Shown here one piece after another: positions 1 to 6,000 of a stretch of 64,000 nucleotides of DNA. Positions within the stretch are counted from its first letter, which is position 1. Every line of letters begins with the position of its first letter. The position numbers were made by a program. The stretch lies in NCBI RefSeq assembly GCF_056712565.1, contig NZ_CM160072.1; one strand, 5' to 3'.

Positions 1-3000
1 GTAATATGCAAATAAGCAATTAATAATCCCGTTTACTCCTCCGGTCTTTTAAAATTCTCACCTTCATTCAGCTGGTTTATGTCCTTCATGTCTTCGTTCT
101 TGCACGGCAGATTTCTGCATCCAGGCGTGTTTTCGTTATGCGTTTTGCTCCCTTTACTCGCCAGCGCCACCACATCACATATCTCTTTTAGCTACGCCGC
201 CCGCCAGCGGATGCAAAACCGTGCGCGTTTATTAAAACAGTACCAAACCCATCTGAAAAAGCAGGCCAGCTATATTGTGGAAGGCAATGCCAAAAGCAGA
301 AGGGCGCTGCGCCAGCATAATCGGGAGCAGATAAAACAGCATCCAGAATGGTTTCCTGCGCCGCTCAAGGCGAGTGACAGACGCTGGCAGGCGTTGGTGG
401 AGAATAATCATTTCTTAAGCAGCGACCATCTACATAACATCACCGAAGTGGCGATTCACCGCCTGGAGCAGCAGCTAGGTAAGCCTTATATCTGGGGGGG
501 CACGCGGCCTGATAAAGGCTTCGACTGTAGCGGGTTGGTTTTTTATGCCTACAACAAGATCCTTGAGGCTAAGCTCCCGCGCACGGCCAATGAGATGTAC
601 CACTACCGTCGGGCAACGATTGTGGCGAATAACGACCTGCGCCGGGGAGATTTGCTGTTTTTCCATATCCACAGTCGTGAGATAGCCGACCATATGGGCG
701 TATATCTTGGAGACGGTCAGTTTATCGAGTCACCGCGCACCGGGGAAACCATTCGGGTAAGTCGGTTAGCCGAACCTTTCTGGCAGGACCATTTTTTAGG
801 CGCGCGACGGATTTTGACGGAAGAGACGATTTTGTAGGCCGGATAAGGCGTTCACGCCGCATCCGGCGGTTGTGCGCCGGTGTCTGATGCGACGCTACGC
901 GTCTTATCATGCCTACAAATCTGTGCATTTTTTGCGAGCCGCTTTCCCGATTTAACACAACATCATTGCCGACTTTTCCTTTTCTTCTTACCGTTGAGAA
1001 AAAGGAGTCGTTATGTCTGAATATCGTCGTTATTACATCAAGGGGGGAACCTGGTTTTTCACGGTAAATTTACAGAATCGTCGAAACCAACTTTTGACCA
1101 CCCAGTTTCAGACGCTCCGTAACGTTATTATTAAAGTTAAGCGAGACAGACCTTTTGAAATTAACGCTTGGGTAGTTTTGCCGGAGCATATGCATTGCAT
1201 ATGGACATTACCTGAAGGCGATGATGATTTTTCCTCGCGCTGGCGGGAAATTAAAAAGCAATTTACCCATGCTTGTGGATTGAAAAATATCTGGCAACCA
1301 CGTTTTTGGGAACATGCTATCCGCAATACCAAAGACTATCGCCATCATGTTGATTATATTTATATAAATCCAGTAAAACATGGTTGGGTAAAACAAGTGA
1401 GTGATTGGCCATTCTCAACGTTTCACCGCGATGTTGCGAAAGGGTTATATCCCATCGATTGGGCGGGAGACGTAACGGATTTTAGTGCTGGGGAGCGTAT
1501 CATTTTATAGCTGTGCGCCGATGCCTGATGCGACGCAGACGCGTCTTATCATGCCTACAAAACCGCGCTCACCCGTAGGCCGGATAAGGCGTTCACGCCG
1601 CATCCGGCGGTTGTGCACCGGTGCCTGATGCGACGCAGATGCGTCTTATCATGCCGACAAAACCGCACTCACCCGTAGGCCGGATAAGGCGTTCACGCCG
1701 CATCCGGCGGTTGTGCACCGGTGCCAGATGCGCCGCTACGCGTCTTATCATGCCGACAAAACCGCACTCACCCGTAGGCCGGATAAGGCGTTCACGCCGC
1801 ATCCGGCAATATGCACCGATGCCGGATGCCTACATCAACGCCCCCATTATCTTCAACTCCAGCTCATCCAGCACTTCGTTATACGACAGCACATGCAGCC
1901 CTGGTGCAAACAACCTTGCGTAGCGCGCCAGCAAAGGGCGCAGCTGCGGCGGCACCAGCAGCACCGGATCTTTCCCCGCCGCTTTCATCTGCTCCTTCAC
2001 CTGCGGCATCGTGATCTGAAACTGGTTGAGCATATTCGGGTCCACCGGCACGCTATCGAGCATCACTTTGCCGGCCTGTTGCGCCTGATTCACCACGTTG
2101 GTCAGCAGATTTTCCAGCTCATTATTCAGCGTATACACCGTCAGCTCCTGCTTGCGAACGAACGGATGGGTAATGCTGCGCCGCAGCACCAGGCGCACAT
2201 CGGCCGTCAGCAGAATATGATCTTTAGTCACCGCACTACTGGCGACCAACACGGTGGCGATGGTGACGATATCGCGCAGGGAAACGCTTTCAGTCAGTAG
2301 TGTGCGGTACACTTTCAGCAACTGGCTGTAATTGAGCGCCGCGCTCAAATCTTCCGCCAGTCGCGGTGCCATCGACGACAAACGGTTATGCAGCTGAGTA
2401 ATATCGTCATAGTTAAACAAATCAGGAATATAGCTGCGCACAATCTTATTCACATGGGTGGCAATTACGCTGGCGCTGTCGATCACCTGATACCCCATAT
2501 TCAGCGCCTTCGCTTTCTGCGCGGGCTGAATCCAGGTGACCGGCATCCCGTACGCCGGGTCGTTCCCCAGCACGCCGTCTATCTCGCCGTAGGTTTCGCT
2601 GGAGGGCAGGGCCATCAGTTTATCCGCCGGAATATCCGCTTCATCAGCCTTAATGCCGTTGATGAAAATAGCGTACTGGCTGGGCTTGAGGCGGAAGTTT
2701 TCCCGAATACGGATCTCCGGCAGCAGCACGCCGTTGCCGTCGGAAATCACCTGACGTACGCCGCGAATACGCTGGGTGAGCGGGTTGCCCTGCGCTTTAT
2801 CCACCAGCGCCACCAGTTTGTAGCCGAGGCTTAAACTGATAGGTTCGATCAGCGGAATAGTTTCCCAACTGACCTGTTGCTCGCTGGTTTCTGTCATCGT
2901 ACGGGTTAGCGTTTCGAGGCTTTTCTCTTCCGCCTCCGCCGCTTGCGGGCGCTTGCTCATCCGCCAGCCGGTAAAACCAAGCAGGGCGCTGAACATCAGG

Positions 3001-6000
3001 AACGGGAAATGCGGCATTCCCGGCACCACCGCCAGCACGAACATAATTCCAGTGGCGGTGTAGAGAACCGACGGGCTTGCCAGCAACTGATTACGCACGT
3101 CATGGGCGATATCACCGTTATCGCTGACGCGGGTGACGATAATCGCCGCCGCGGTGGAGAGCAGCAGGGAAGGGATTTGCGCCACCAGCCCATCGCCGAT
3201 AGTCATCAGCACATATTGCTGGAAGGCGGCGTCGGCGCTCAGGTTGTATTTGAAGATCCCGATACAGACGCCGCCGATCAGGTTGATCGCCAGAATCATC
3301 ATCCCGGCGATGGCATCCCCGCGCACAAATTTTGATGCCCCGTCCATTGCGCCGTAGAAATCGGCCTCGCTGGCAACATCTTTACGCCGGGTTTGCGCCT
3401 GCGTCTGGTTGATCAACCCGGCGTTAAGATCGGCGTCAATCGCCATCTGTTTGCCGGGCATCGCGTCCAGGGTAAAGCGGGCAGAAACCTCGGAAATACG
3501 CTCGGCCCCCTTGGTGACGACGATAAAGTTGATTGTCAACAGCGTCAGTAAATCCGAGCGTGAAAGCATTATCGCCGCGCTGCACGGGCAGTCGATTTTT
3601 AACGGTGGTGGGTTGTCGCCGTTAAATAAAATCAGCCCGTCTCATCTGCCAAAACCTGCCACCGTGGCGGTGCCGGAAGAGACGGAGAAAAAAGCGCGCG
3701 ACGTCAACGAGAAAACGGCGCTGTTGAAGAAGAAATCCGCCACCGAGCTTGGCGAGCTGGCGACCAGTATCAATACCATCGCCCGTGATGCGCATATGGA
3801 AGCGAATCTGGAGATGGAGATTGTTCCCCAGGGATTACGCGTGCTGATTAAAGACGACCAGAACCGCAATATGTTTGAACGCGGCAGCGCGAAGATTATG
3901 CCGTTCTTTAAAACTTTGCTGGTGGAGCTTGCGCCAGTGTTAGACTCGCTCGATAACAAAATTATTATTACCGGGCATACCGATGCGATGGCCTACAAAA
4001 ACAATATCTACAACAACTGGAACCTTTCGGGCGATCGCGCGCTTTCGGCTCGTCGGGTGCTGGAAGAGGCCGGAATGCCGGAAAATAAAGTGATGCAGGT
4101 AAGCGCAATGGCGGACCAGATGCTGCTGGATGCCAAAAATCCGCAAAGCGCGGGCAACCGGCGCATTGAGATTATGGTGCTGACCAAAAGTGCGTCCGAT
4201 ACGCTGTATCAATACTTTGGTCAGCATGGGGATAAAGTGGTGCAGCCGCTGGTGCAAAAGCTGGATAAGCAGCAGGTGCTTTCGCAGCGAGCGCGTTAAA
4301 TGCTGAATCTTTACGCATTTCTCAAACCCTGAAATCACTGTATACTTTACCAGTGTTGAGAGGTGAGCAATGCGTAAAATCATTCATGTGGATATGGACT
4401 GCTTTTTCGCAGCGGTGGAGATGCGCGACAATCCCGCCCTGCGCGATATCCCTATTGCTATTGGCGGCAGCCGCGAACGACGGGGGGTAATCAGCACCGC
4501 CAATTATCCCGCGCGTAAATTTGGCGTACGTAGCGCTATGCCGACAGGGATGGCGCTCAAATTATGCCCGCATCTCACCTTGCTTCCAGGGCGCTTTGAC
4601 GCCTACAAAGAAGCCTCAAATCATATCCGCGAAATTTTCTCGCGCTATACCTCGCGCATTGAACCGTTATCACTGGATGAAGCCTATCTCGATGTCACCG
4701 ATAGCGTCCATTGCCACGGTTCTGCGACCCTCATCGCCCAGGAAATCCGCCAGACGATCTTCAACGAGCTGCAACTGACGGCGTCTGCGGGCGTTGCGCC
4801 GGTCAAGTTTCTCGCCAAAATCGCCTCCGACATGAATAAACCCAACGGTCAGTTTGTGATTACTCCGGCTGAGGTTCCGGCATTTCTGCAAACCTTACCG
4901 CTGGCAAAAATTCCCGGCGTCGGCAAAGTCTCAGCGGCTAAACTGGAAGCGATGGGGCTACGAACCTGCGGTGATGTGCAAAAGTGTGATCTGGTGACTC
5001 TGCTCAAACGTTTTGGCAAATTTGGCCGCATTTTGTGGGAGCGTAGTCAGGGCATTGACGAGCGCGACGTTAACAGCGAAAGGTTGCGAAAATCCGTCGG
5101 TGTAGAACGTACGATGGCGGAAGATATTCATCACTGGTCTGAATGTGAAGCGATCATCGAGCGGCTTTACCCTGAACTGGAGCGTCGTTTGGCAAAGGTA
5201 AAACCTGATTTGCTGATTGCCCGCCAGGGGGTGAAATTAAAGTTCGACGATTTTCAGCAAACCACCCAGGAACACGTCTGGCCGCGGCTGAATAAATCTG
5301 ATCTAATCGCCACCGCGCGTAAAACCTGGGATGAACGCCGCGGCGGGCGCGGTGTGCGACTGGTGGGGCTGCATGTGACGTTGCTTGACCCGCAAATGGA
5401 AAGACAACTGGTGCTGGGATTATGATGTATACTATTTTGTATATTCTGGTGTGCATTATTATGAGGAGATCACTGTATGCATCGAATTCTCGCTGAAAAA
5501 TCGGTCAATATCACTGAGTTACGTAAAAACCCAGCTAAATACTTTATTGATCAACCTGTTGCGGTTCTTTCTAATAATCGCCCCGCAGGATATCTCTTAA
5601 GTGCCAGCGCATTTGAAGCATTAATGGACATGCTTGCAGAACAAGAGGAGAAAAAGCCCATAAAGGCGCGCTTCCGTCCGAGTGCTGCAAGATTAGAGGA
5701 AATTACACGCCGCGCTGAACAATATCTTAATGATATGACGGATGATGATTTCAATGACTTTAAGGAATAAGGATGCGGGTATTCAAAACAAAACTTATTC
5801 GCCTGCAACTTACAGCAGAGGAACTTGAAGCGTTAACGGCGGATTTTATTTCCTATAAGCGTGACGGTGTTTTGCCAGATATATTTGGTCGTGATGCACT
5901 CTACGACGACTCGTTTACCTGGCCATTAATCAAATTTGAGCGAGTTGCTCATATTCATCTGGCAAATGTGAATAATCCATTTCCGCCACAGTTGCGCCAA

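Follow-up and report, generated by a model that had tools for sequence, protein, structure and literature searches.

The lfhA'-lafU' scar of the Flag-2 flagellar locus in Escherichia coli and the sharing of its joint with other enterobacterial genera

What remains on a chromosome from which a complete flagellar gene cluster has been deleted, and how did one and the same remnant come to be carried by so many genomes? Flag-2 is a cluster of about 40 genes for a second, lateral-type flagellar system, located between yafL/rayT and dinB. Within a stretch of 64,000 nucleotides (nt) from contig NZ_CM160072.1 of NCBI RefSeq assembly GCF_056712565.1, referred to here as the window, the region 1830-4299, delimited by two stop codons, had been predicted from the sequence to be the product of an internal deletion of this cluster. 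We consider, with a probability of about 95%, that it is the canonical Flag-2 deletion scar of E. coli, the lfhA'-lafU' pair known as fhiA-mbhA in strain K-12. The scar is an already known feature, reportedly described by Ren et al. in 2005 in J Bacteriol 187:1430.

The gene context was established from the RefSeq annotation of strain Z0117EC0054, to which the window is 100% identical over the probe, together with the open reading frames (ORFs) of the window. It reads yafL, rayT, an array of repetitive extragenic palindromic (REP) sequences, a 5'-truncated flhA, lafU, dinB, yafN, yafO and yafP, and the pair occupies the site of Flag-2 between yafL/rayT and dinB. On the minus strand, an ORF of 579 aa (1830..3569) matches the Pfam family FHIPEP with an E-value of 5.5e-188 from position 99 to 655 of a profile of 657, so that what is lost is confined to the N-terminal portion of the family. 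The retained residues, 131-697, are 97.7% identical to intact E. coli LfhA (tblastn) and, at the DNA level, the remnant is 96.3% identical to flhA of the intact Flag-2 locus of E. coli GN04133, up to position 22034 of that locus. The stub matches positions 118-677 of the 678 in the NCBIfam model TIGR01398 with 587 bits, against a cut-off of 772 bits and a score of 775.8 for intact LfhA; a functional FlhA should both exceed this cut-off and carry a complete N-terminal membrane domain, and the stub does neither. The 130 lost codons correspond, presumably, to about the first three to four transmembrane helices, as judged from the topology of Salmonella FlhA. The start of the 579-aa ORF is supplied by an ATG at 3569, within sequence read through from beyond the joint, and inspection of the aligned sequences showed that this codon is not conserved in other genera. 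The NCBI annotation marks this stub of flhA as a pseudogene.

On the plus strand, an ORF of 296 aa (3409..4299) encodes an OmpA domain (Pfam, E = 4.5e-15) and its product matches positions 42-297 of the 297 in the NCBIfam LafU model NF005273. It is 98.4% identical to residues 53-307 of GN04133 LafU (tblastn) and retains the linker and the OmpA-like peptidoglycan-binding domain. The N-terminal 52 residues that are absent comprise the transmembrane helix (FADFTLAMMALFMTLW) and the Pfam MotB_plug region. Accordingly, LafU remnants of 261 aa carry PF00691 only and intact LafU of 307 aa carries PF00691 and PF13677; a functional MotB/LafU is expected to have both a transmembrane helix with the conserved Asp and the PF13677 plug region, and the stub has neither. 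Both truncated homologues are thus as they had been predicted, on the strands predicted. What had been called a back-to-back arrangement is, more precisely, head to head, with the 5' ends adjoining and transcription diverging, and the overlap of the long ORFs amounts to 161 nt (3409-3569) because both frames continue beyond the joint, each on the antisense strand of the other gene.

The comparison suggested with the original prediction, alignment with an intact Flag-2 locus, was made against GN04133, with the window aligned jointly to the sequences at both of its breakpoints. Window positions 1612-3542 and 3528-5425 are collinear with the flhA side and the lafU-dinB side of GN04133, respectively, and the 38,138 bp lying between the collinear blocks in GN04133 constitute a single clean gap that contains all the remaining Flag-2 genes. 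The missing stretch extends from lfhA codon 130/131 to lafU codon 52/53 and carries about 43 genes, including flhB, fliRQPNM, lafK, fliEFGHIJ, flg genes, lafA, fliDSKL, the gene for the lateral sigma factor, motA and, in addition, cargo genes. When the 45 proteins of the intact locus were searched against the 64-kb window (tblastn), only FlhA (residues 125-697, with homology proper beginning at residue 131) and LafU (residues 53-307) were matched and the other 43 gave no match; neither the 5' end of intact lfhA or lafU nor any further Flag-2 gene was found between yafL and dinB. In intact loci (the type known from E. coli 042, represented here by GN04133 of sequence type 131 (ST131), E14, H1, R12 and SBF45), the flanking lfhA and lafU halves, yafL/rayT and dinB are alike; what sets the window apart is the absence of 38.1 kb from codon 130 of lfhA to codon 53 of lafU.

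Mapping to the single base showed that the left flank matches the intact locus through window position 3533 and the right flank from 3531, so that the junction falls on a GAT, at I131 of FlhA and W52/I53 of LafU. It lies within an imperfect direct repeat of 15 nt, GTTGATGATCATCAG and GTGGATTGTCAACAG, identical at 11 of 15 positions; an earlier paper also describes the deletion as lying inside the two reading frames, lfhA and lafU, and as bordered by direct repeats (PMC6993521). The occurrence of GAT at both sites would be the signature of illegitimate joining at a microhomology rather than of homologous recombination between long repeats. Long direct repeats were looked for within 150 nt on either side of the breakpoints; the best alignment was a 14-mer, out of register and equalled in 14 of 300 shuffles, and such repeats were rejected as an explanation. 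Coordinates of the scar and of other features of the window are collected in Table 1.

Table 1. Positions of the scar components and of other features in the 64,000-nt window
Feature	Position	Strand	Remarks
lfhA (fhiA) remnant	1830..3533	-	codons 131-697 and stop (567 codons); first 130 codons missing
Deletion joint GAT	3531..3533		present at both intact breakpoints; 3-bp microhomology
flhA-frame read-through	3534..3569	-	12 codons, MLSRSDLLTLLT; antisense to lafU; not homologous to FlhA
lafU-frame extension	3409..3530	+	41 codons; antisense to flhA; includes GTG 3514
lafU (mbhA) remnant	3534..4299	+	third base of codon 53 to codon 307 and stop (255 codons)
rayT	1013..1510
REP array	1512..1829		3.2 copies, 100-nt period, 92% matches
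RefSeq 'hypothetical protein'	1593..1751	-	inside the REP repeats; looks spurious
CTG-N10-CAG motif	4336..4355		CACTGTATACTTTACCAGTG; found by eye
yafN-yafO segment	5426..6177
yafN	5477..5770
yafO	5773..6171
RtcB-family RNA ligase gene, then prfH	6811..8573		few-codon overlap
tRNA-Thr(CGT)	16538..16613
Island	~17900..37000		coordinates converted from RefSeq annotation of the identical strain
vat	~30778..34908	-	autotransporter toxin gene, in the island

One observation could be held against the probable loss of function of the stubs, namely that the lafU stub is treated by the NCBI pipeline as a normal gene. The Prokaryotic Genome Annotation Pipeline begins an ordinary coding sequence (CDS) at GTG 3514, yielding a 261-aa 'LafU' (VTTIKLI/VNSVSK...) that corresponds to CDS 5115-5900 of the Z0117EC0054 locus and window 3514-4299. 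The call is made because the score of the stub exceeds the cut-off of the LafU model (470 versus 383 bits), and we found no evidence that contradicts the scar identification.

The scar is the prevalent allele in E. coli. A 120-nt probe across the joint was covered over at least 80% of its length in 4085 of 5426 complete genomes (about 75%), and the ends on the deleted side are retained in 1152 (about 21%). K-12 BW2952 has the identical joint, as have all 15 of the E. coli scar alleles sampled and, since about 75% of the complete genomes share it, the strain most likely inherited its scar allele rather than generating it. Relative to K-12 fhiA-mbhA, the window has its scar at the same chromosomal site, with both stubs shared and the joint matching to the nucleotide. 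The differences are allelic only: 6.2% in the flhA stub and 2.8% on the side of lafU and dinB, over 1167 nt counted from the joint. The window allele is common to ATCC 11775 and ATCC 25922. Two papers attribute the fhiA-mbhA scar of E. coli K-12, B, O157:H7 and Shigella to Ren et al. 2005 (PMC3032704, PMC6993521), and the second reports stubs in all of the Flag-2-less E. coli, 76 of 100 strains (PMC6993521). Separately, E. coli H1 (NZ_CP010160.1) has an intact flhA end and the joint probe finds no lafU-side match there; a P22-like prophage lies about 30 kb downstream of its flhA, and this is apparently a different, non-canonical Flag-2 rearrangement.

The same remnant occurs beyond E. coli. 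De Maayer et al. 2020 report lfhA-lafU remnant pairs in other Enterobacterales, in 531 of 4028 strains (PMC6993521), and another paper describes the same pair, of about 2.5 kb, in E. albertii lacking Flag-2 (PMC11420993). These remnants consist of the same two stubs as in the window, with the same synteny on the yafL side. We found that the joint itself is at a nucleotide-identical position in E. albertii, Kluyvera, Citrobacter, Atlantibacter and a Dryocola-like strain, a total of five genera, with at least two lineages in Citrobacter, at least two in Atlantibacter and two further lineages from metagenomes. Truncated LafU proteins beginning ...TTIKLI/VNSVSK, that is, with antisense-flhA codons followed by LafU from residue 53/54, are encoded by Citrobacter gillenii, C. 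amalonaticus and Citrobacter sp. R-1.5.2, by Kluyvera ascorbata (two lineages) and Kluyvera sp., and by Atlantibacter hermannii, other Atlantibacter and the Dryocola-like strain. No alternative joint was present among the 31 classifiable truncated LafU proteins, all of which share this one. The DNA of six loci from other genera confirms the joint as ..AARTTRAT/YGTNAAYAGC.., and it is identical in the E. albertii type strain (NBRC 107761). A scan of genome contigs with LfhA gave mostly generic FlhA matches, the informative ones being two intact loci of Citrobacter and the scar of E. albertii, while a search of metagenomes with a degenerate pattern that excludes E. coli gave only three matches, all Kluyvera- or Citrobacter-like. 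All the scar loci of other genera have a yafL homologue upstream, and those of Kluyvera and Citrobacter have dinB downstream. Involvement of RayT or the REP sequences in the deletion was rejected, because rayT/REP are absent next to the stub in other genera and no such gene lies beside the Kluyvera, Citrobacter or Atlantibacter scars. In their searched passages, the papers on these remnants report remnant presence and do not discuss a nucleotide-identical joint across genera with young-looking flanks.

A single neutral scar that was vertically inherited predicts that scar alleles form a clade and that their stubs have decayed. Neither is seen, and such a history is therefore not predicted to give the data observed. 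The extent of the shared joint across five genera is one of several results that weigh against it. The flhA stub is an uninterrupted ORF of 567 codons in 14 of the 15 E. coli scars, and the E. coli scar alleles differ by up to 6%, with a ratio of non-synonymous to synonymous substitution rates (dN/dS) of about 0.06. Moreover, the same flank haplotypes, extending as far as the joint itself, are found in scar-bearing and in intact strains. In strain AVS0710 the scar is 100% identical to intact GN04133 over 1704 and 1167 nt of flank, and the K-12 scar matches intact H1 for about 900 nt from the joint. The scars of PSS-07 and ETEC-2265 are each close to intact E14 on a single side, the former differing from it by 0.2% on the flhA side and the latter by 0.1% on the lafU side; no variant separates scar from intact alleles, even at 12 nt from the joint. 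AVS0710 and GN04133 carry the ST131 haplotype, and the two sequences are free of differences for about 12 kb to one side of the joint and for about 21 kb to the other.

The loci of the other genera show the same pattern. Their flanks are 72-90% identical to E. coli and 72-84% to each other, and they are species-specific at synonymous sites right beside the joint. The nearest relative of a scar LafU is usually the intact LafU of the same species: the two are 99.2% identical in E. coli, 98.9% in C. gillenii and 99.6% and 100% in Kluyvera, and the scar LafU of A. hermannii is 87.9% identical to its conspecific intact counterpart versus 81.9% to the nearest other scar. The Kluyvera scar is close to intact DNA of that genus, at 98.6% identity across 3.5 kb, and the mismatch nearest to the joint lies 118 nt away from it. 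The FlhA stub is uninterrupted in six of seven scars from other species (E. albertii, Kluyvera, two Citrobacter, two Atlantibacter and the Dryocola-like strain) and, among 22 scar alleles altogether, only two stubs are disrupted, that of PSS-07 by a 1-nt deletion 833 nt from the joint and that of E. albertii NBRC 107761 by a break in frame at stub codon 336. Synonymous divergence (dS) between genera is saturated, at 1.0-1.8. The dN/dS values range from 0.025 to 0.13 for all scar pairs and from 0.025 to 0.062 for six pairs that were re-examined, the latter being in the same range as the values between intact genes (0.013-0.036), and constraint in the six pairs is not relaxed over the 100 codons closest to the joint. 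Blocks of exact identity flanking the joint are only 0-24 nt long between genera.

The origin of the joint has no bearing on what the feature in the window is. If a single scar decaying neutrally is set aside, it is distinctly possible, if short of probable, that the joint nevertheless arose once, long ago, and that its flanks have been overwritten up to the border of heterology by recombination with intact alleles. Scar and intact alleles would have persisted side by side, both within species and across them, or have been exchanged between species, and the flanks would consequently look local, young and constrained. The uniqueness of the joint favours such an origin, with 31 of 31 proteins starting ...KLI/VNS, as does the finding that both states are polymorphic in E. 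coli (about 75% and 21%), Kluyvera, Citrobacter and Atlantibacter; E. albertii is also polymorphic, with about 25% intact according to one paper (PMC11420993). PSS-07 and ETEC-2265 are one-sided mosaics that switch haplotype at the joint, as recombination tracts ending at a heterology would. For ST131, published phylogenies are read as showing that Flag-2 was gained by recombination, as an 'insertion' into a scar-bearing ancestor (PMC5369007). However, an ancient joint requires that the polymorphism has outlived many speciations, at the dS values given above, or has crossed between genera with no usable homology, and traceless homologous transfer of the joint between genera is judged implausible given identity blocks of 0-24 nt. 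A rough estimate also suggests that overwriting would not proceed fast enough for a neutral ORF of 1.7 kb to stay open in 14 of 15 alleles with the scar at 75%, and no excess of scar-intact divergence is found near the joint.

The converse reading, towards which we are more sceptical and which we hold to be rather unlikely, is that the Flag-2 core is repeatedly and precisely excised from intact loci by a process that prefers these sites, each scar being a young local derivative. Such excision might be the work of a host recombinase or of some other mechanism able to recognise the two sites. A shade more doubtful still is the full form of this proposal, in which nucleotide-precise lfhA-lafU excision recurs across the Enterobacteriaceae, each scar is recent and the 38-kb core is an excisable module. 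Recurrent excision fits every pattern described above: the identity of the joint despite flanks that are 72-84% identical to each other, the conspecific intact LafU as nearest relative, the closeness of the Kluyvera scar and intact alleles, dN/dS values between scars of different genera near those of intact genes with no relaxation beside the joint, and identity blocks too short for traceless homologous transfer. The ST131 pair also speaks for it, with scar and intact alleles identical over more than 30 kb around the joint. Had foreign DNA been inserted exactly at the joint, divergence should change abruptly at the breakpoint in the intact ST131 allele; no such step was seen, the interior being as divergent from other intact alleles as the flanks. 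The published interpretation of ST131 as a Flag-2 insertion stands against recurrent excision.

The principal difficulty for recurrent excision is that a mechanism is not visible. No recombinase Pfam domain was detected in seven non-flagellar ORFs of the deleted segment, a scan that left out the glycosyltransferase and the cytidylyltransferase; the other genes of the interval are annotated as flagellar, regulatory or sugar-modifying. When the breakpoints were compared as attachment-like sites, they shared only a GAT/AT core, with an in-register similarity of 16/30 that is not unusual, being equalled by 1.3% of random pairs of GAT sites in the locus, or about 4000 pairs. Partial palindromes are discernible by eye at both breakpoints (TGATGATCATCA and ACGCTGT...ACAGCGT), not all of them conserved across genera, and comparison by eye with the dif, cer and psi sites of the Xer system, hix sites and integron core sites gave partial matches only, out of register with the joint. 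The reciprocal joint of a circle-type excision was absent from all 5426 E. coli genomes, a weak test given that a non-replicating circle would escape assembly. Furthermore, when a rare genomic change is shared in identical form, common descent is the default inference. The skin element in sigK of Bacillus and the nifD element of Anabaena interrupt genes and are removed by programmed excision. In this they offer an analogy, since their loss is precise, spans tens of kb and uses fixed paired sites, but they encode their own recombinase and restore a gene, whereas for Flag-2 no recombinase was found and two genes are destroyed.

Could the stubs instead have been retained for a purpose? That a truncated FlhA and/or a LafU lacking its transmembrane helix gained a function and is kept by purifying selection seems to us quite improbable, even though the ORFs are uninterrupted in 14 of 15 E. 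coli scars and six of seven scars of other species, two Atlantibacter scars with a dS of 1.29 have a dN/dS of 0.025, and variants private to single E. coli scar alleles are synonymous in 39 cases and non-synonymous in five, the last being a weak test since singletons among 16 alleles need not be recent mutations. In the intact locus, flhA is the last of the co-oriented genes fliM-fliN-fliP-fliQ-fliR-flhB-flhA, and lafU is the last after the sigma factor gene and motA. The deletion removed the upstream co-oriented genes and, presumably, the promoters with them, leaving two promoterless, 5'-truncated stubs that point apart and whose expression has probably been lost. Promoter-like sites are not enriched around the joint (4 versus 2.2 +/- 1.3 in shuffles), and no Shine-Dalgarno sequence was seen on inspection before either putative start. 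Across genera, no start codon or ribosome-binding site is conserved, GTG, ATG or TTG occurring at differing positions. Constraint is distributed as in the full-length protein, frameshifted stubs exist in PSS-07 and the E. albertii type strain, and the scar alleles form no clade of their own. Lacking its only transmembrane helix, and with it, as far as can be judged from sequence, any export signal, the LafU stub could not bring its peptidoglycan-binding domain to the periplasm. Given this loss and that of 130 residues from FlhA, both stubs are probably non-functional.

Finally, full-length genes masked by frameshifts, which the original prediction had named as the outcome that would overturn it, or by sequencing error or mis-assembly can practically be neglected: we found nothing in their support, the coding sequence for FlhA residues 1-130 and LafU residues 1-52 is absent from all frames of the whole window (tblastn), and thousands of independent complete genomes carry this joint.

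Several features lie close to the scar. The REP array, which can also be described as a bacterial interspersed mosaic element, occupies the space between rayT and the flhA stop codon, and in ETEC-2265, E14, E6474 and PSS-07 a hicA/hicB toxin-antitoxin pair replaces rayT and the REP sequences. On the other side, the scar ends 37 nt before a CTG-N10-CAG motif, which we take to be the expected LexA (SOS) box of dinB and which lies 15 nt upstream of the dinB start. The yafN-yafO toxin-antitoxin pair in the dinB operon is also present in K-12 and is absent from GN04133, AVS0710 (ST131), E14 and others, in which dinB runs directly into yafP; it represents a second presence/absence polymorphism, 1-2 kb from the scar. 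Further downstream, the genes for the RtcB-family RNA ligase and release factor H (prfH) both appear to be full length. The tRNA-Thr(CGT) gene is followed by an island with small recombinase and integrase genes, a short run of phage-like genes (capsid and baseplate), and integrase and IS1 fragments. Such an island at tRNA-Thr(CGT) with vat is typical of an extraintestinal pathogenic (B2-type) strain.

The finding itself concerns a textbook pseudogene pair of E. coli, and its immediate value lies in correct annotation, the 'LafU' CDS of the pipeline being a stub. The wider significance depends on the origin of the shared joint. If the joint is recurrent, it would point to an unrecognised mechanism of precise deletion that acts as an evolutionary on/off switch for a costly 40-gene organelle. 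If there was one ancient joint, it would represent an unusually long-lived presence/absence polymorphism and a natural marker for the way in which recombination erases linkage beside a large heterology.

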